Shown here in pieces: positions 9,573-42,336 of a stretch of DNA of 64,000 nt. Made by a program: the position numbers and the translations under genes. The stretch's first letter is position 1; each line of letters opens with the position of its first letter. The notes under the pieces were generated by a model. The model searched no databases and had not been told where the DNA came from. It saw nothing but the letters and a program-made list of their open reading frames with translations. The stretch lies in IMG/VR virus record IMGVR_UViG_3300037512_001142, positions 22,733 to 86,732 of that record. One strand, given 5' to 3'. The DNA is from a virus (Duplodnaviria; Caudoviricetes).

Positions 9573-9683
9573 TTATTTAAGGAAACCGTCTTGCCATAAT
9601 TCGTAGATTTTACCAATTTTGTCAGTTAAAACAATGCCTGTGGCCTCGTCCTGGACAGTAATTTCTTCATTCGGATCCAAACA
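9573..9683 (-). other. atypical split intein N-fragment (IntN, 36 aa)
   Basis: CLDPNEEITVQDEATGIVLTDKIGKIYELWQDGFLK-stop begins with Cys at the position where T4-like terminases continue QE[FY].C-EFLG, and has the intein block-A pattern plus KIGKIYEL. Confidence 0.8.
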
Positions 9684-10532
9684 TGCGTATTCCTGGTTGA
9701 AGAACTTAATACCATGGTCACGAATAACCTTCTTTCTGAATGTTTCATCACGACCGTCGATTTCATTCCAGGCAATCTTAGCCGGAACGAACGTATTGAT
9801 ACCAGCGAGAGCGCTTTGCCAAATCTTATAGAACTGGTTCATTCCCTTAGGTGTCGAGATAAGAATCAACATACTGGTCTTACGAGAAGCCTGGGTCGGA
9901 ATAACCGACATCATAAAATCGTCAGCATCCTGTTCCGGCAAGTGCGCAAATTCGTCCACTAGCATAAGGTCAACGGATTTACCACGAATAGCGGAAGAAG
10001 AACTAGCAGCACAGAAAATCTTACAACCGTTATCGAAACCGATTGATTTCTGTGACCAGCCACCACGGTCCGGATTGATACCTTGTTGCAGCCACATAGG
10101 AAGTCTCAGAACTGCAGCACGAATACGGAGCATAATTTCAATAGCCTGCGATTCCTTGTTAGCCAGAACTGCAATAGTCTTGTCCTTGTGGAACAGTGCA
10201 TACCAAAGAATATAAAGTGTAGCGATCGTAGTCTTGCCAGCCTGACGACCAACCGTAATAATTCTGTTATTTCTTAGAACCTTTTCGCCCTTGGAATCGG
10301 TCATAACCGTTCCGTCATCGTTTCTCATGAAATAGGTTCCGCAAATTACCTTGATGAGACGTTCCTGATATTCTCTCAATTTAATAGGCAATTCGCCATC
10401 TTCTGTCAAAATGTAAAAGTAATTGGCAAAGTGGAAAATATCCTTTGAGCACTTCTCGTATTCCGCCCATTGTTCTGGAGTCATTTCCACATTTTCGTTG
10501 TGGCCTCTTAGTGTATCGGTTCCTTGGAACAT
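9573..10532 (-). CDS. terL: large terminase, N-terminal ATPase half only, fused to a split-intein N-fragment
   Basis: Walker A VGRQAGKT, Walker B LMLVDEFAH, motif III ISTPKG and LREYQ are present. The reading frame stops 36 aa after QEYA; the nuclease domain is absent. Confidence 0.92.
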   Translation of the reverse strand: MFQGTDTLRGHNENVEMTPEQWAEYEKCSKDIFHFANYFYILTEDGELPIKLREYQERLIKVICGTYFMRNDDGTVMTDSKGEKVLRNNRIITVGRQAGKTTIATLYILWYALFHKDKTIAVLANKESQAIEIMLRIRAAVLRLPMWLQQGINPDRGGWSQKSIGFDNGCKIFCAASSSSAIRGKSVDLMLVDEFAHLPEQDADDFMMSVIPTQASRKTSMLILISTPKGMNQFYKIWQSALAGINTFVPAKIAWNEIDGRDETFRKKVIRDHGIKFFNQEYACLDPNEEITVQDEATGIVLTDKIGKIYELWQDGFLK

Positions 10533-10627: not shown

Positions 10628-11311
10628 TTAGAATGTCTGAATGAACTCTTTAAATGCGTCCAGAATGGCCTTAGAACCCTTCTTATCGACTTCCTTATTG
10701 AAAGCCTTCTGGCCAGCGATAATACGTTCACGCTGTTCAATGAAAAGTCCGGTATTTTCGTTAAGAACCCACTTGGAAACATACTGTACGGATTCATACA
10801 TAGCGTCAGTATAAGCGACCTGGGCAGATGGCATGTAAACCGAGTCGATTGTGACAAGGTTATAGTCGTCAGCGACCATGTTGCCTTCGGTCAAATTACC
10901 GGTACCACGAGACGAAACACCCATACGAACACCGTCGAGCAAGAGAGATTCGAGGAGCTTGCCGTTAGGAGTATGCAAAACCTTTGCCTTACCCATAGCG
11001 AGATTACCGTCCATGTGAAGATCAGTAATCATGATTGCTGCTTCACGAGGGTTGATTTCGATTGTTTCAGGGTGATTGAGTTCGCCAAGAGCTTCACGTG
11101 ATTCGATGAGCTTCTGGAATTTATTAACTTCACGTTCAATAATTGCCTTAGAATAAGTACGACCATTACGGTTTACTTCTTCAGCCATCATGAACGGACC
11201 ACTGATATACATGGTCTTCATGTTGTTGCCAGCATCTTCAAGCATAGATTTTGCTTCAGCGCAGGCTTCTTCGCACAATAGCTTTTTTGCTTCCATAATT
11301 AAAATCTCCAA
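10628..11311 (-). CDS. gp21: prohead core protease
   Basis: YISGPFMMAEEVNRNGRTY, ALGELNHP, GVSSRGTG and DSVYMPSAQVAY are canonical T4 gp21 (peptidase S77) motifs. Confidence 0.95.
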   Translation of the reverse strand: MEILIMEAKKLLCEEACAEAKSMLEDAGNNMKTMYISGPFMMAEEVNRNGRTYSKAIIEREVNKFQKLIESREALGELNHPETIEINPREAAIMITDLHMDGNLAMGKAKVLHTPNGKLLESLLLDGVRMGVSSRGTGNLTEGNMVADDYNLVTIDSVYMPSAQVAYTDAMYESVQYVSKWVLNENTGLFIEQRERIIAGQKAFNKEVDKKGSKAILDAFKEFIQTF

Positions 11312-15843: not shown

Positions 15844-17166
15844 TTACCAAACGAGGTCAGCTTCAGAGGATTCAGCGAAGAGTCCGTTGAACTTGAGCAA
15901 GCGGTAGTAGTTTTCAGCACCGAGCATGTTGTGAGCAAAGCCATAACGGCTCATGATACCAACACGAGGGCTGAAGTCATTCGGGTCAATAGCCTGGTTG
16001 ACAACACCGGTTACGTACGGACAGAAGATAACACCAGCATCATAGAGGCTAGAGCCCTTGAATGCGAGGAGAACTTCACCGTTGTCGTGTTCACCGAATT
16101 CATCAACAGCGTACTGGTCACAGAAGACCTTTACAACACCGTTAAGGGTACCCATTTCCGGAGTAACAGCAGAACCGTTAACTTCGTGAGCAACCTTGGT
16201 GAACCATGGGTTAGCGCACTGAAGAACAGTAGCAACGTCCGGGGAAACAACTGCAATGTTAGCAGCGCCACGACGAGTAGCGGTACGGATGTCGTTTACA
16301 CCCTTCATGATGTGGGTGATGATCATACCGAAACGTTCCTGAGAGTTGCGGCCAATGAAGGCGTCGTTATTGGCGAGAGTTGTATTAGCCTTGTTGAACA
16401 CGCGAGGTGTGCAAAGAGCCTTACAACGACCGATAGTTTCACGGTCCATTTCAGCGGTCATTTCAGCCTGAAGGACGTTAATCATTTCAGTCATCATTTC
16501 GATACCCTGCATAGCCTTAATATCGGCAGCAGATTCGAGAGAGAAGGAAGCAGCGAGCTTACGGCTCTTAGCAACGATGGACTGGCGGCTGAGCATAAGG
16601 CCGATTTCCGGCATCTTACGGCTTACAGACGGGTCATCAGAACCAAAAGTCGGGCCAGTAATCTTCCAACCTTCAGCGGACTGAGTGTCAACGCCGGTAC
16701 CAGCGTCCCATTCACCAGACTGGTTAGCGGTAGAACCGGTATAACCAGAGAAGCGAGGAACAGCCTTCCATGCGGCTTCAACGAGTTCGTTCGGGTTATT
16801 TGTCTTATAGATGTAACGGAGTGCGAAGGCAAGGCCAACAGGACCAGTCAACGGCTGAACACCAACGAGAACGTTAGCGAAGAGCTGCGGGAACACACGA
16901 CGAACGAGCGCGAGAGAAATCGGAGCGAAAACGCCCTTAGCGTCGCCACCGTGCGGAATGCCCTGGTCGAGACCAAGCGGAGCACCTACACCCTGGGTGA
17001 AATCTTCAGTGAGAAGTTCTGCACCGAGATTCTTAGTCTTCTGGTTTTCAAGAAGACGTGCGGTATTATAACGTACAAGGGAGTCCTTGATACCAGCAAC
17101 GGAAAGTCCGCCCGGTGCCTTGGCCCAAGTATCTACCATAGTAGCTTGTGATTGTGTAACTTTCAT
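15844..17166 (-). CDS. gp23: major capsid protein
   Basis: ISLALVRRVFPQLFA...VGVQPLTGPVGLAFALRY, SRKLAASFSLESAADIKAMQG and FCPYV...DPNDFSPRVGIMSRYG are gp23 motifs; strong AGGAG SD. Confidence 0.97.
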   Translation of the reverse strand: MKVTQSQATMVDTWAKAPGGLSVAGIKDSLVRYNTARLLENQKTKNLGAELLTEDFTQGVGAPLGLDQGIPHGGDAKGVFAPISLALVRRVFPQLFANVLVGVQPLTGPVGLAFALRYIYKTNNPNELVEAAWKAVPRFSGYTGSTANQSGEWDAGTGVDTQSAEGWKITGPTFGSDDPSVSRKMPEIGLMLSRQSIVAKSRKLAASFSLESAADIKAMQGIEMMTEMINVLQAEMTAEMDRETIGRCKALCTPRVFNKANTTLANNDAFIGRNSQERFGMIITHIMKGVNDIRTATRRGAANIAVVSPDVATVLQCANPWFTKVAHEVNGSAVTPEMGTLNGVVKVFCDQYAVDEFGEHDNGEVLLAFKGSSLYDAGVIFCPYVTGVVNQAIDPNDFSPRVGIMSRYGFAHNMLGAENYYRLLKFNGLFAESSEADLVW

Positions 17167-17231: not shown

Positions 17232-18203
17232 TTAGCAAAACTGGGACGCCCTGTATGCTGTAGAATCAACATCAGGTTCCTGTTTTCTAAAACGTTCAGT
17301 TAAAGTTTCAGCAGTAGTGTCTTCGACAAAGCGAGACTTGCGGACCGGGCGTTCACGCTGCTCAAAGAGCTTTGCACGTTCACGACGAACCGTTTCATAA
17401 TTTTCTGTTTGTTCTTGAACCATCTCGATATAAGGATCAATGTCGCGCTTGGTTTCATTGAGGCTCTTGTCCTTGAAGAACTTCTTAACCTTTGCACGTT
17501 CTGCGACGCTCAAGCTAGCTGTCTTTTCAGCGATAAGAGACTTCTTACCGGAAATTTCAACAAGTTCAGCAAGACGCATATTTTCGGAAACCTGCTTCTT
17601 CAAAGATTCTTCGAGTTCGGCGTTAGTAGCCTTCATGTCACGAATCTTCTTGGAACCAGAGAGATCCATCGGAACATATTCTTCTTCAAAGAGGCGCTTG
17701 ATGCCATCGATGATAGGAGCATAGGTTTCGGTCATGGCCTGCTTCTTGATGAGGCTTGGGTCAATCTTTTCATTGATATTATATTCGAGGTACTTGTCAA
17801 GGCCAGTAATAACCTTTTCTTCGAGTGCTTCAAGCTCTTCGCCGTACTTTTCCTTGAATTTCTTTTCAAAATATTCAAAGATATACTGTTCGGAGGCGTC
17901 TTCGAGCTTCTTCTTATAGGCTTCAACCTTTTCATTGGCTTCCTTTTCGAGAAGAGCTTTCTGTTCCGCACACCAAGTATTAGCCATTTCTTCTACCTTA
18001 GCGGCATTCTGTTCTTTGGCTTCTTTGATTTTTGTCTGAGAAAATTCGTCGGCTTTCTTAGCGAGATCCTGGGCAATCTTTTCTGTCTGCGCTTTCACCT
18101 TTTCATCAACCGCGGCCTCAAAAATCTGTTTGATTTCATTAAGGTCTTCGGCTGAACATACGCCTGAAAGCTTAGTTAGAAATTTTTCCATTGAATCCTC
18201 CAA
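17232..18203 (-). CDS. gp22: prohead core scaffold protein
   Basis: IKQIFEAAVDEKV, a long E/K-rich helical sequence and LDKYLEY; lies immediately upstream of gp23. Confidence 0.85.
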   Translation of the reverse strand: MEDSMEKFLTKLSGVCSAEDLNEIKQIFEAAVDEKVKAQTEKIAQDLAKKADEFSQTKIKEAKEQNAAKVEEMANTWCAEQKALLEKEANEKVEAYKKKLEDASEQYIFEYFEKKFKEKYGEELEALEEKVITGLDKYLEYNINEKIDPSLIKKQAMTETYAPIIDGIKRLFEEEYVPMDLSGSKKIRDMKATNAELEESLKKQVSENMRLAELVEISGKKSLIAEKTASLSVAERAKVKKFFKDKSLNETKRDIDPYIEMVQEQTENYETVRRERAKLFEQRERPVRKSRFVEDTTAETLTERFRKQEPDVDSTAYRASQFC

Positions 18204-26768: not shown

Positions 26769-28388
26769 TTAGAATCCAAGGTCATCTCCGCCACCGGCTT
26801 CATCACCCTTATCACCGCCTTCAGCAGCGACAGCTTCAGCCTGTTCCTGCATCTGGCGAACTTCATTATCCAACATCTTGCTGTTGAGAAGAATTTCCTG
26901 AGTAGACATACCAAGAATCTTTTCCATGAAGAACTGCTTGGAGAAGAGAGGACCAAGTTCGTCAGTACCCTTAATATTTGTCGGAGTCGGCAAGAACTGA
27001 GAAAGGGTGTTAACGACACCGCCACGCTTTTCAGCCATGGCCAAATCACGCATACGCTCGAAGTCAGTTGCCGGATTCAAATCAATATTGTAAAGGGCCT
27101 TATCCAAGAACTTAGAAGGATAATTACGAACTTTCAAATGAACAAGGAAGACCTGAAGAATAATATCCGAGAATCTCTTACGGAGTCTGCGGTTCATACG
27201 CTGGAATGCAACTTCTTCAAGGTTAGAACCTTCAACACCCTGGTTATATGCAGCCTGACCAACTTCTTCAGCCTTCCAACGAGCCTGAGGAATTACGAGA
27301 GCGTCCATAACCATCTTCTGGAACATGTAGACGTCTTCGAGCTGGCCAGCGAATGTAGCACCGGAAGCAAACGGTTCAACAGTCGTACTATTACCAGAGT
27401 CATCCTTTGCGAAGAAGAAGTCTTCAGTCATAGCCTGAGTATTCTTCGTGGAGTTAATCATACCGGTATGGTTATCGATTGTCAAATTCTTACGGTACTT
27501 TGCGCGGATTTCCTGCACATAAGCTGCAGCCTTGTCAGGAGGCATACGGCCTGCATAAATGTTAAAGATACGCTTTTCAGTTGCACGTGTAATACGATAA
27601 ACAGTCAAGGCGTCTTCAATATTCCTCAACTGGTTCAACGGGCGAATTGCAGGTTCCAAGTGTCCGCGAATATCGTTACGGTTCGACCATGGCTCACCGT
27701 AGTTTACGTATGCAATCTGGTTCGGGAGGAACTTCTTGATTTCATCGTTCTTTTCTTGCTGACGGTTCAAGAAGTTGATATTCTGAATGAATCCGTTAAT
27801 ATTGTCGGAATCACGGTCATAAATGGTGAGCATTGCCTGTGGGGCAAGCTGAACAATACCTGCAACCTTGTTGCCAGCATCGTTAAGGCAGATTTCCCAG
27901 AAAAGCTCAGCATCGATAAGCCACTTCTTGTAGTAGTTCCAGATGTTTTCCTTACCGATAACACATTCGACAATATAATCAAATTCCATCTTCAAGGCAC
28001 TGAACTCAGTGTCAGTGAATGCGGACTTGAACGGCTCTGCAAGGTCGAATTTCGTAACGTTACCGTAGGAATCCGGACAAACGGCTTCATCGCTCATAAT
28101 ATTAAGACCCTTCTTAATCAAAGGGTACAATGCCATGGAACGATACCAGCTAATCTTCTGCCACTTGTTGGTGAAAAGGGTTTCAAATACAATATTGTTG
28201 GAGTCGTAAGGAGTTGCCGGGTCATAATATCCGTTATTATATCCATTAACTAAACGGTCCCATTCTATGGTATCTTCACCACGACCATAAGAGTTTCGGG
28301 CCGCTTCAACTGAACGAATTTCATCATTCGACGGCTTCAGTTTTAAGAATTCATCGCTAAAAGGGTTAATAAATTGTAGATTGAACAT
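26769..28388 (-). CDS. gp20: portal protein
   Basis: AIRPLNQLRNIEDALTVYRITRATEKRIFNIYAGRMP, MTEDFFFAK and IDLNPATDFERMRD are gp20 motifs. Confidence 0.97.
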   Translation of the reverse strand: MFNLQFINPFSDEFLKLKPSNDEIRSVEAARNSYGRGEDTIEWDRLVNGYNNGYYDPATPYDSNNIVFETLFTNKWQKISWYRSMALYPLIKKGLNIMSDEAVCPDSYGNVTKFDLAEPFKSAFTDTEFSALKMEFDYIVECVIGKENIWNYYKKWLIDAELFWEICLNDAGNKVAGIVQLAPQAMLTIYDRDSDNINGFIQNINFLNRQQEKNDEIKKFLPNQIAYVNYGEPWSNRNDIRGHLEPAIRPLNQLRNIEDALTVYRITRATEKRIFNIYAGRMPPDKAAAYVQEIRAKYRKNLTIDNHTGMINSTKNTQAMTEDFFFAKDDSGNSTTVEPFASGATFAGQLEDVYMFQKMVMDALVIPQARWKAEEVGQAAYNQGVEGSNLEEVAFQRMNRRLRKRFSDIILQVFLVHLKVRNYPSKFLDKALYNIDLNPATDFERMRDLAMAEKRGGVVNTLSQFLPTPTNIKGTDELGPLFSKQFFMEKILGMSTQEILLNSKMLDNEVRQMQEQAEAVAAEGGDKGDEAGGGDDLGF

Positions 28389-39393: not shown

Positions 39394-39936
39394 ATGGAAA
39401 AAATAATCTGGCAAAGATTCTTCGAATCATTGGAAGACCCTTCTGGACAGAAGGGCTTGCGTCGTCTCGTCAATAATGCTAATATGCTGGCGAGCGGTTT
39501 CGAAGCTAACGGAATACTCAATGAAGCCGCAATGTCTCTTAGAAACTTGAAAAACAGCGGCAAAAAAATCAACCTGTCAATGCATGACAGGAATATCGAC
39601 AATATCCTAGTTTTCGTTTTTCTAAAATCGATTACTACGATTCCAAGAAAGACAAAGGCATACAAGCTCGGTCTTATCGACCGCAACGGTGCACTTATCC
39701 GCGAGCCCGTTACCAAGGAAGAAAATGACAGTATTTCGAATCTTGACCTTCTCATGTTCAAGCTTCGCGAATGGCTTAAACCGAAACTTCCATATCTTTC
39801 TTCCATTACCTGGCTCCAGAGCGTTTATAACAACCAGCGTATTCAGAACCAGCTTGCAAACACAAGCATGTTGGCTCGTCAATACGTAGTCCGTCAAATA
39901 AATTCACAGCTAGACGATTTGTTAAGGAAGCATTAA
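39394..39936 (+). CDS. conserved-looking T4-like phage hypothetical protein
   Basis: KAYKLGLIDRNG motif; TATAAATA at 39379-39386. Confidence 0.6.
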   Translation: MEKIIWQRFFESLEDPSGQKGLRRLVNNANMLASGFEANGILNEAAMSLRNLKNSGKKINLSMHDRNIDNILVFVFLKSITTIPRKTKAYKLGLIDRNGALIREPVTKEENDSISNLDLLMFKLREWLKPKLPYLSSITWLQSVYNNQRIQNQLANTSMLARQYVVRQINSQLDDLLRKH

Positions 39937-39937
39937 A

Positions 39938-40180
39938 ATGACACCATGTCCTAATTGCCCACAGAAACAACAGAATGATTACTTCAAGTATGGTTTTACG
40001 TTAATGAATGGTGCGATTTATTGGACCAAGATACCAGAAGTGAAACAGTGCTGTGCTATCAAAGTGAAATTAATCGATCATACCGCCTCTAATGTTACCG
40101 TGGAATACGAAGGGAAGACTTATGTCAGGACCCGTAAGGATTTCATGGAATCGAGTTGGCGAGACATCGATTCCTATTAG
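39938..40180 (+). CDS. hypothetical protein
   Basis: 80-aa ORF tightly packed after the preceding stop; CPNCP motif. Confidence 0.5.
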   Translation: MTPCPNCPQKQQNDYFKYGFTLMNGAIYWTKIPEVKQCCAIKVKLIDHTASNVTVEYEGKTYVRTRKDFMESSWRDIDSY

Positions 40181-40646
40181 TCTTATGCAATATACAAACA
40201 AGAAACGCCTCAAAATCCAGGAAATTGAAATAAATGACGAGATAGCATCAAGTCTATTTCTGGAGTGCAACCGCTTATTTTTTGATAATAAAATCCCAGA
40301 AATACCCATAGAAATCATAGAAAGTGATACTATGAATGGTGATTTGAAATATGATGTTGACCTAAACAACAAAACCATTTCAAATTATAGAATACAGATT
40401 TCAAAAAGTAGAAAAAGAACTAAAAAAGCGTTCATTTCTACTATGATTCATGAAATGTTGCACTATGAAGTAGTTTCTGAAATTCCTTATGAACGTATTG
40501 ATGAAGCTGCTTGGTATTATCAAGAAGGCGACATGGATAAGTTCGATAAACTGTTATATAACAACAAATATGCCCATACCGGTCTTTGGGCTGAAAAAGC
40601 CGACAATATAAATAAGTTATACGGCATTAAAATCAATAAGGCATAA
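40092..40646 (+). CDS. SprT-like zinc metallopeptidase-family protein
   Basis: LECNRLFFDNKIP...STMIHEMLHY...H...W (HExxH zincin, SprT pattern). The real start is probably the ATG near 40185 (MQYT). Confidence 0.7.
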   Translation: MLPWNTKGRLMSGPVRISWNRVGETSIPISLMQYTNKKRLKIQEIEINDEIASSLFLECNRLFFDNKIPEIPIEIIESDTMNGDLKYDVDLNNKTISNYRIQISKSRKRTKKAFISTMIHEMLHYEVVSEIPYERIDEAAWYYQEGDMDKFDKLLYNNKYAHTGLWAEKADNINKLYGIKINKA

Positions 40647-40648
40647 TT

Positions 40649-41074
40649 ATGACAGTTGAAGAAGCAATAAAAATTTTAGAAGAGAATGGAATGCAGCTCG
40701 ACGAAGACTTCGGTATCGGCGTTGGTGCTCCTTGCGGTTTAGACCAAGGAATTCCACATGGCGGTGACGGTAAAGGTTGTTGTCCGCAACGCATGGGACT
40801 CATGTTCCATCGTTCGCCATTTTCTGTAAATCCGTTCTTTGCTGGTGTTCCGAATGCACATCATCCGCAATACTGGCTCAATCAGATTTCAAAGAAAAAG
40901 AAGAAAAAGAAAAAGAGAAAACTCAAGGAAAGTTTCTCCGTTATTGGTACATATAACGATGATAACGAAAAAGTTTATGAATTTGACGACGGTACTTACA
41001 TCCGTGAAAACATGGACGGTACCATTACTGTTGTTGATGAAGATGGAGAATCTCGTTCCTATCTATTAGACTAA
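40649..41074 (+). CDS. small protein carrying a copy of the capsid N-arm peptide and a poly-Lys tract
   Basis: EDFGIGVGAPCGLDQGIPHGGDGKG is 21/25 identical to MCP residues 54-78; followed by KKKKKKKKRK. Confidence 0.8.
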   Translation: MTVEEAIKILEENGMQLDEDFGIGVGAPCGLDQGIPHGGDGKGCCPQRMGLMFHRSPFSVNPFFAGVPNAHHPQYWLNQISKKKKKKKKRKLKESFSVIGTYNDDNEKVYEFDDGTYIRENMDGTITVVDEDGESRSYLLD

Positions 41075-41461: not shown

Positions 41462-41980
41462 ATGTCAAGACCATTACCAAAAAATTTAGTCGCTTCTCGT
41501 GAATTAAGAGCTCGTAGGAATCGTATTCGTACGGATTATATCAGAAATTTACGTGAAGAATCCGAAAATGAAGTAAATGAATCTGCAGAACCGTTAAAAA
41601 TTCCAAAATTTACTATTCCTGAAATTCCAAAAATCGAAAAACTACAAGCCACTTATACCAGTCCTGTAGTTGAAGAACAAAATAATACTTTGGATGATTT
41701 TGAACGTGAATATCAGGCTTTTATCGAAAAACTTAAAAAGGAAAAAGAAAAGAAAGAATTGAAAGAAGAACTCAAGGCTTTCTGTAAAGAATACATCAAT
41801 GAAGTTCTTGGTATTAATCAACCTCAGGAAGAACCTGAACCTGTAGTCGAAGAACCAGAAGATATAGTTGTAGATGAACCTCTGTTTGCAGATGTTGATG
41901 AAGAACCAAAATCTATGGAAGAAGAATATCAGGATTTCATAAATAGTTTAAAACAAAGAAAAAAAGGGATAAAACAATGA
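41462..41980 (+). CDS. charged low-complexity protein with two EYQ[A/D]FI motifs
   Basis: FEREYQAFIEKLK and EEEYQDFINSLK. Confidence 0.65.
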   Translation: MSRPLPKNLVASRELRARRNRIRTDYIRNLREESENEVNESAEPLKIPKFTIPEIPKIEKLQATYTSPVVEEQNNTLDDFEREYQAFIEKLKKEKEKKELKEELKAFCKEYINEVLGINQPQEEPEPVVEEPEDIVVDEPLFADVDEEPKSMEEEYQDFINSLKQRKKGIKQ

Positions 41981-42336
41981 ATAGATTTGCAAAACGTTAC
42001 GAAGAAGATACATCCACCTACTCCGATTATGACAAGGCTCGTGCAGCAATGGCCAATACGGTCCGTTCTTACCCAGCTCGTTCATATTCCTTCCGCACTG
42101 TCGGTAATACCGATTCCTTCGAAAAGGAATATCAGGCATTCATCAACAAGCTCAAGGCACAGAAGGAAGAAAAGGCTGTCGAAGAAACTTCTGTTGTCGA
42201 AGAAACCAAGGTTGAAGAAGTAGCTCCGATTGTAGAAGAAACTCCAGTTGTTGAAGAAACTCCGTCTCCGAAAAAGCGCAAGAGCAAGGTTACTGTTGAA
42301 GAAACAGTTGCCACTGATGATACTCTCTTCGGTTAA
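41977..42336 (+). CDS. acidic low-complexity protein with an EYQAFI motif and VEET repeats
   Basis: FEKEYQAFINKLK; repeated VVEET; start overlaps the previous stop (ATGA). Confidence 0.65.
   Translation: MNRFAKRYEEDTSTYSDYDKARAAMANTVRSYPARSYSFRTVGNTDSFEKEYQAFINKLKAQKEEKAVEETSVVEETKVEEVAPIVEETPVVEETPSPKKRKSKVTVEETVATDDTLFG

Follow-up and report, generated by a model that had tools for sequence, protein, structure and literature searches.

The small gene at positions 40649..41074 (+) of the window, i.e., of the whole stretch of 64,000 nucleotides analyzed here, which comes from an IMG/VR virus record of 86.7 kb with an estimated completeness of 21%, appears from the architecture of its product to be the local counterpart of T4 gene 61.1. 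The reading that we favor, and to which we give about an even chance, is that this counterpart of 61.1 is a late pro-protein that would be built into the prohead, trimmed by the gp21-type protease, and turned into a basic peptide docking where the N-terminal clamps (N-fists) of the major capsid protein (MCP) dock. The identity and the processing of the protein are well supported by its sequence; the docking site is one that we infer.

The window contains a T4-type head module that comprises the MCP, a scaffold, a prohead protease of the gp21 family, and a gp20-type portal, and a T4-type late promoter box precedes the small gene:

15844..17166, minus strand: MCP (T4 gp23 family), 440 aa; match to phrog_138 with E 2e-65 and to T4 gp23 structures with E 2e-26
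17232..18203, minus strand: scaffold
10628..11311, minus strand: prohead protease (T4 gp21 family), the presumed processing enzyme; Pfam Peptidase_S77 with E 2.9e-33
26769..28388, minus strand: portal, gp20-type
40607..40614, plus strand: T4-type late promoter box TATAAATA, 35 nt 5′ of the start codon of the small gene

Counted over both strands, TATAAATA occurs 36 times in the window compared to 6.9 expected occurrences, a five-fold enrichment that was reached in 0 of 100 shuffles. The box is found 13–41 nt 5′ of the start codons of MCP (34 nt), scaffold, protease, and portal and precedes most of the structural genes, which implies a T4-like late transcription system in this phage. The small gene carries the box as the head genes do, and on this ground it is predicted to be expressed together with them; in 8 of the 11 nearer relatives its late box is kept at −37 to −42. 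The sequence-only reading from which this analysis started had described a stand-alone gene: This holds insofar as the ORF is a separate one, but not with regard to its surroundings, as it is located in a conserved late gene block. Directly 5′ of the small gene lies an ORF (40092..40646, +) with an HExxH motif and a weak SprT-like Pfam match (E 8e-4, below the cut-off), which is found in the nearer relatives only. Elsewhere in the window, an ORF of 319 aa (9573..10532, −) comprises only the N-terminal ATPase part of a large terminase (Terminase_6N).

Residues 17–43 of the small protein agree with residues 52–78 of the MCP at 22 of 27 positions (BLASTP E 6e-13). The match as originally noticed, i.e., residues 19–43 (nt 40703–40777) against MCP residues 54–78 (nt 16933–17007), is correct in its coordinates, and a recount returned the same 21 identities in 25 positions; likewise present are the synonymous codon differences, the L-x-E ahead of the copies in both the small protein and the MCP, and the lysine tract (residues 82–93) that had been reported along with it. 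Within a 32-codon frame that contains 22 identical residues, only 9 of the 22 use the same codon. As identical residues are thus mostly encoded differently, a recent DNA duplication or gene conversion is ruled out. Transcriptional or translational slippage on the lysine codons is unlikely, since AAA and AAG are mixed and there is no long run of A. A six-frame search of the whole 86.7-kb record returned only two copies of the motif, one in the small gene and one in the MCP. Along the small gene, the following parts are distinguished:

40649..41074, plus strand: small gene, 141 aa plus stop, predicted precursor of an N-fist/poly-lysine peptide and apparent local counterpart of T4 gene 61.1 (family, dN/dS, synteny, T4 link)
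40649..40705, plus strand: acidic leader, residues 1–19, net charge −5, predicted propeptide (AF2 helix 3–12; leader type also on other late proteins)
40706..40777, plus strand: copy of the MCP N-fist, residues 20–43, predicted new N-terminus after cleavage (BLASTP E 6e-13)
40778..40891, plus strand: conserved Cys/His/Pro-rich linker, residues 44–81 (~70–75% identity across relatives of 190–220 aa)
40892..40930, plus strand: Lys/Arg tract (residues 82–91) followed by L92-K93-E94, the second predicted protease site
40931..41071, plus strand: acidic C-terminal beta domain, residues 95–141, net charge about −10, predicted to be cut off (AF2 strands 98–139, pLDDT about 80)

The leader ends on L17-D18-E19, with an earlier I-L-E at residues 9–11, and is predicted to be a propeptide like a capsid-targeting sequence. 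The Cys/His/Pro linker is missing or shorter in other subfamilies, and the acidic C-terminal domain is variable or missing among the relatives. Between the two putative cuts lies a predicted core of 75 aa (residues 20–94) with a net charge of about +10. Neither Pfam nor PHROG nor NCBIfam returned a match to the small protein, and neither did a tblastn search among isolate phages. In particular, the gp23 family of Pfam (PF07068) does not match it, its similarity to the MCP is confined to 27–32 residues, and its AF2 model shows no HK97-type body. In the AF2 monomer models, which carry no information on docking, the N-fist has a pLDDT of 30–50 in the small protein as well as in the MCP and is predicted to be disordered on its own, which fits a stretch that becomes ordered only on a partner, as it does in T4 (PMC9546572).

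The N-fist of T4 comprises the first 25 residues of mature gp23* (PMC9958956). In the unexpanded head it is disordered, located inside, and probably near the scaffold core (PMC9546572); expansion moves it to the outer surface, where it clamps four subunits, two of its own and two of the neighboring capsomer (PMC9958956, PMC9546572). A phmmer search against solved structures aligns MCP residue 80 with residue 91 of T4 gp23, which is mature residue 26. A cut after E54 would therefore leave 25 residues before the N-arm, exactly the length in T4:

16930..17004, minus strand: N-fist equivalent of the MCP, residues 55–79, directly after L52-T53-E54

The copied stretch, which had been taken for the mature N-arm of the capsid, is according to this alignment the equivalent of the N-fist, and the N-arm proper comes after it. 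For the same reason the grooves of the inner shell, to which the copy had been assigned, are an unexpected site, since the T4 N-fist ends up outside after expansion (PMC9546572, PMC9958956). Cleavage at the L-x-E sites is plausible: The window encodes a protease of the gp21 family, the MCP site aligns with the gp23 site, and 97 of 100 members of the small-protein family have an aliphatic residue at the third position before the cut (L in 55, V in 21, I in 15, and M in 6). An MCP cut elsewhere, which had been named as a possible refutation, is not what the phmmer alignment to the T4 gp23 site predicts. All of the 120 best MCP homologs (≥55% identity) carry the motif, and the copy in the small protein keeps exactly those positions that are invariant in the MCP N-fist. 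Compared with the N-fist of T4 gp23*, the MCP stretch found here has the same position and length, and it is this stretch that the small protein copies; unlike in T4, the sequence of the clade is unalignable with the T4 N-fist, and the small protein has no HK97-fold body. One of the MCP homologs, P0178 (69% identity), is listed at NCBI as a 'hypothetical protein' of a Methanobrevibacter MAG; most likely it belongs to a phage contig that was binned into an archaeal genome, which hints at a gut or rumen origin.

No gp24-like vertex paralog was found; the complete or near-complete relatives G001, G002, and G003 have none by tblastn or PF07068, and a vertex protein lacking an N-fist was sought with the same outcome. 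This bears on the idea that sites at the pentamers are left free for the copy, as no gp24-like paralog that would leave them empty was found. G001, G002, and G003 each have a single full-length gene of the gp23 family, and their pentamers are presumably built from the MCP.

Homologs of the small protein form 56 clusters at 90% identity, and a library of 1.84 billion proteins yielded at least 83 metagenomic clusters at 50% identity; in IMG/VR, the motif is present at 71 loci. Three complete or near-complete relatives (411, 416, and 424 kb; two of them with terminal repeats) carry one small gene and one MCP copy each. Measured against close relatives, the dN/dS of the small gene is 0.07–0.11, with saturated dS and a dN of 0.03–0.2 for the core: The gene is real and under strong purifying selection. 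The check on relatives that had been suggested thus turned out in favor of the earlier observation, as both copies are kept together and the motif is present in 120 of 120 MCP homologs.

In the family alignments A1 and A2, columns without any variation are confined to the MCP-like stretch, with E-D-F invariant at the junction. The part ahead of the copy ranges from 4 to ~300 aa across the family, the junction always consists of an aliphatic residue-x-Glu followed by Asp/Glu-Phe, the spacer between copy and basic tract spans about 10 to 45 residues, and the Lys/Arg tract is present in most members, the smallest of which comprise 57–78 aa. Directly after the basic tract, the forms of 190–220 aa in the window's subfamily have a [KR]-[LV]-x-E, and so does the window protein with its 141 aa; short forms (91–104 aa) stop at the basic tract. 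The predicted core is constant in length, with 74–78 aa or, in another subfamily, 50–53 aa, and has a median net charge of +10, and the propeptide is acidic with a median charge of −5. This composition suggests a precursor whose acidic ends would mask the basic core until the protease removes them. In one lineage a mixed charged stretch and larger domains stand instead of the lysine tract. L122 (221 aa) and the clusters P0098, P0105–P0109, P0114, P0116–P0117, and P0121–P0122 have such a mixed charged stretch after the N-fist copy, and in the L122 lineage the leader-like helix/Gly-aromatic motif recurs internally after this stretch, with domains of up to 500 aa behind it. In some members of the family, large C-terminal domains of 400–600 aa follow the copy.

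We further compared small proteins and MCPs encoded on the same contig. In pairs from three lineages, the two proteins share lineage-specific residues, which are encoded by different codons. For two of the three lineages, the identity to the MCP of the own lineage amounts to 21–24 of 28 positions vs 14–18 of 28 across lineages. The covariation with the MCP that had been proposed as a check is therefore borne out by the two lineages that discriminate, but not by the window's own (lineage A), in which the identity to the own MCP is not above the cross identity; the latter also applies to three of five T4-like isolates (T4, Ac42, and PSTCR6). A fourth lineage, with an aromatic residue for His in G-I-P-x-G-G, has the matching variant in its MCPs and in small proteins of 76–78 aa, each seen on separate short contigs only. 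A divergence of the copy in step with each MCP, within a family that is unalignable across clades, is an uncommon pattern and suggests a specific binding site common to both. We rejected the notion that the motif is a general exosite for the protease, as each genome holds no more than two copies and the sequence after the site is a different one in other candidate substrates.

The statement that T4 has no equivalent was wrong: When the T4 genome is searched with gp23 residues 60–100, the second match is gene 61.1, which has the same build. It is annotated as a hypothetical protein, is located directly upstream of the primase gene, and encodes a product of 54 aa. Residues 1–10 of gp61.1 match the leader of ipII/ipIII at 7 of 10 positions, and residues 1–7 match that of ipI at 7 of 7. 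The leader ends on I-x-E and is followed by a match to gp23 residues 57–93 (17/37, E 6e-9) and then by QIPKKKK, and Q-I-P with lysines of this type is also found in the window family; the tail of gp61.1 is mixed Lys/Glu and not net basic. For IPIII, the capsid-targeting sequence has been demonstrated experimentally, with residues 4 and 7 mattering for targeting and residues 8 and 10 for processing (PMC9026906). Gene 61.1 is listed as a conserved T4-like ORF without function (PMC1524935), and in the literature searched we found no paper that assigns it a function or notes its composition. Taken as a whole, the sequence-only reading keeps its observation, the co-conservation, and the plausible cleavage and has to give up the N-arm, the inner grooves, and the missing T4 equivalent.

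By tblastn, gp61.1 has matches in 1432 isolate genomes, some of them on the MCP gene itself. The same build is found in Aeromonas 44RR, Acinetobacter Ac42, Vibrio V07, and Providencia PSTCR6. In the long forms of gp61.1 (Ac42, V07, PSTCR6, and Citrobacter IME-CF2), a domain of ~100 residues precedes the aliphatic-x-E, the N-fist copy, and the basic tract. In Synechococcus phage S-RIM2, a similar gene lies two genes ahead of that for the primase; its copy begins at or near the N-terminus, and no clear propeptide is present. Several 61.1-like ORFs, e.g., that of S-RIM2 (NC_020859.1, 153381..153923) and those of HY01, KP179, Miro, and ValerieMcCarty03, are annotated as 'major head/capsid protein' because of their N-fist copy, a misannotation that can mislead capsid gene counts.

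A probable second link to gene 61.1 comes from the neighborhood of the small gene:

39394..39936, plus strand: 'up3', a late protein of 180 aa

All small-gene loci that extend far enough have up3 on the upstream side, at a distance of two or three genes. Its homolog in the long gp61.1 forms is their N-terminal domain (BLASTP against Ac42 gp61.1, E 4e-8), and phrog_2086 matches both up3 (profile positions 5–86) and T4 gp61.1 (profile positions 108–154). Among isolate phages, up3 itself returned no tblastn match, and an atlas search gave unnamed viral clusters only; T4 gp61.2, considered as a relative of up3, is unrelated. A direct connection at the profile level was sought in two ways: The window protein and 27 family members returned no PHROG match at E up to 1, the gp61.1 families phrog_1823 and phrog_2086 included, and hhalign of the window family against gp61.1 and alignment A4 gave a probability of 4–6%, with nothing significant beyond QIPKKKK. 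Such non-significance is expected if each copy diverged with its own MCP, and the putative orthology therefore rests on the architecture, the relation to the own MCP, and the up3 link. As for the architecture, the window protein possesses a propeptide ending on aliphatic-x-E, an N-fist copy of its own MCP, and a basic tract, as do T4 gp61.1 and its counterparts in four isolates.

In detail, the window protein and T4 gp61.1 have in common the leader ending on aliphatic-x-E, the copy of the own MCP's N-fist, and the Q-I-P-led lysine tract, and their loci appear to be linked via up3. The window protein departs from gp61.1 in the type of its leader, in a Cys/His/Pro linker of 38 residues, and in a much longer lysine tract, to which it adds the second predicted cleavage site and the acidic beta domain. 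The loci differ as well: While the window gene lies in a late block, T4 61.1 adjoins the primase gene.

The leader type of the window protein, which consists of a helix (residues 3–12), a Gly-aromatic turn, and an aliphatic-x-E within about 20 residues, is not restricted to this family. It is found on five more genes of G001, at 162286 (+), 199893 (+), 221516 (−), 326658 (−), and 338888 (+); four of them carry an exact late promoter box in the 80 nt before the gene, and in the fifth the box has one mismatch. Additional occurrences are at position 670 of the record, outside the window, and at L083:754-1596 (−). One of the leader-bearing proteins is an SLT transglycosylase of G002, in which a hydrophobic stretch follows right after the leader, an unusual feature for a head-internal protein. 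The leader-bearing proteins are otherwise unrelated, and their residues after the site differ. The shared leader may be the capsid-targeting propeptide of the clade. One of its carriers, a G001 protein of 322 aa (220551..221516), contains an HExxH motif.

With the T4 internal proteins IPI, IPII, and IPIII, the window protein shares a short predicted N-terminal propeptide ending on [LI]-x-E, a basic mature part, and an expected residence with the DNA; it differs from them in that there is no homology (PHROG, Pfam, NCBIfam) and in that they carry no copy of the MCP N-terminus. With cuts predicted at both of its ends, it is closer to Alt than to the internal proteins. In adenovirus, pre-Mu (pX) and pre-VII are highly basic, DNA-condensing peptides that are freed in the capsid by the viral protease, with Mu being cut at both ends. 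These core proteins belong to an unrelated virus with an unrelated protease and do not mimic a capsid protein. In lambda (C/Nu3) and herpesviruses (UL26/UL26.5), protease and scaffold share a short tail through which both bind the same site of the capsid; this tail is encoded in genes that are nested in frame, and its target is the MCP. In the phage studied here, the shared element has a gene of its own, copies the terminus of the MCP itself, and is kept alike by selection.

From these features we propose the following course of events: The small pro-protein would be made late and incorporated into the prohead. A cut after L17-D18-E19 would free the protein of its acidic leader and expose an N-terminus that copies that of the mature MCP (the N-fist), and cleavage after L92-K93-E94 would take off the acidic domain at the C-terminus. 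What is left would be a peptide of 75 residues with a net charge of about +10, made up of N-fist copy, linker, and lysine tract. Its N-fist copy would dock on the surface that is bound by the MCP's own N-fist, either in the core-facing state of the prohead or in the pocket between capsomers after expansion, and its lysine tract would bind the packaged DNA. Since the T4 leader already looks sufficient for targeting, a role of the copy beyond entry is favored; and as no gp24-like paralog was found, free sites would have to be provided at the portal or by competition with the MCP's own N-fists. Several observations weigh against this proposal: Free lattice sites are hard to place if each MCP subunit supplies its own N-fist. 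The tail of gp61.1 is not net basic, one lineage is devoid of the lysine tract, and in lineage A and three of five isolates the identity to the own MCP is no higher than the cross identity. Finally, the leader-bearing SLT transglycosylase with its hydrophobic stretch would be an unusual protein inside a head.

A sharpened form of the idea in the sequence-only reading holds that the copy is a surrogate N-fist that, after expansion, enters pockets devoid of an MCP N-fist (at the portal or at pentamers), with its basic tail anchoring the genome. In the T4-superfamily phages examined, which comprise Straboviridae isolates, the uncultured ~410-kb clade, and probably a cyanophage, pockets unfilled at symmetry breaks would be occupied by a protein rivet that holds genome and shell together and evolves jointly with the MCP. 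It is in line with the behavior of the T4 N-fist, which binds four subunits over two capsomers and passes from the inside to the outside upon expansion (PMC9958956, PMC9546572), with the retention of the invariant N-fist positions and the tracking of the own MCP, and with the consideration that a T4 leader which already supplies targeting should leave the copy another job. Nevertheless, we regard this version, for the phage of the window as well as for the T4 superfamily, as unlikely: The free pockets would have to be postulated, no separate vertex protein was found in these phages, the monomer models are silent on binding, and the spacing between copy and tract varies from about 0 to 45 residues.

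The copy might instead serve entry only, binding the scaffold core or the protease and thereby getting cargo packaged, with no role in the mature shell. The N-terminal region of gp23* lies inside the unexpanded T4 head and probably touches the core (PMC9546572), co-variation with the MCP would also be expected from a shared core partner, and the members that carry the copy before C-terminal domains of 400–600 aa look like cargo with a tag. However, gp61.1 and the window protein already have targeting-like leaders, which would make a second means of entry redundant, and the copy is as nearly invariant as the MCP stretch, for which the mature lattice is the known constraint. We therefore hold a function in entry alone to be clearly unlikely.

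It is very improbable that the small protein acts as a competitor or regulator that draws the protease or N-fist contacts away from the MCP and in this way times cleavage or expansion. The cleavage junction and the next about 25 residues are indeed common to the small protein and the MCP, and late expression with the head genes is predicted, but a decoy would need neither a conserved basic tract nor a second cleavage site. Moreover, the T4 protease cuts many substrates without such a downstream stretch (PMC9026906), and the other leader-bearing proteins found here have unrelated residues after the site.

Least probable of all is that the protein is no virion component but a cytoplasmic nucleic-acid-binding or chaperone-related protein that resembles the MCP owing to a shared folding or modification factor: The gene does lie in the replication cluster of T4-like isolates, directly upstream of the primase gene in T4 and close relatives and two genes upstream in S-RIM2, yet the invariant aliphatic-x-E junction, the likeness of the T4 leader to a capsid-targeting sequence, and the late promoter box on the window gene speak against it.

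With the proposed pro-protein, gene 61.1 gains a concrete composition of targeting leader, copy of the capsid's N-terminal clamp, and basic tail, and the relation spans from T4 to uncultured phages of ~410 kb and probably to a cyanophage. Owing to the T4 counterpart, the idea is testable in the model phage T4. If the peptide is present in heads, it would be an unrecognized component of one of the best-studied virus capsids and could bear on the fixing of DNA to the shell, on expansion at special vertices, on cargo tagging, and on T4-based delivery vectors.

Downstream of the small gene, two adjacent late proteins (41462..41980 and 41977..42336, both +) have a short repeat in common, in which a Lys-rich helix comes after aromatic-Gln-Ala/Asp-Phe-Ile. 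The former protein has two copies of this repeat and the latter has one, and it recalls the core of the T4 capsid-targeting sequence.
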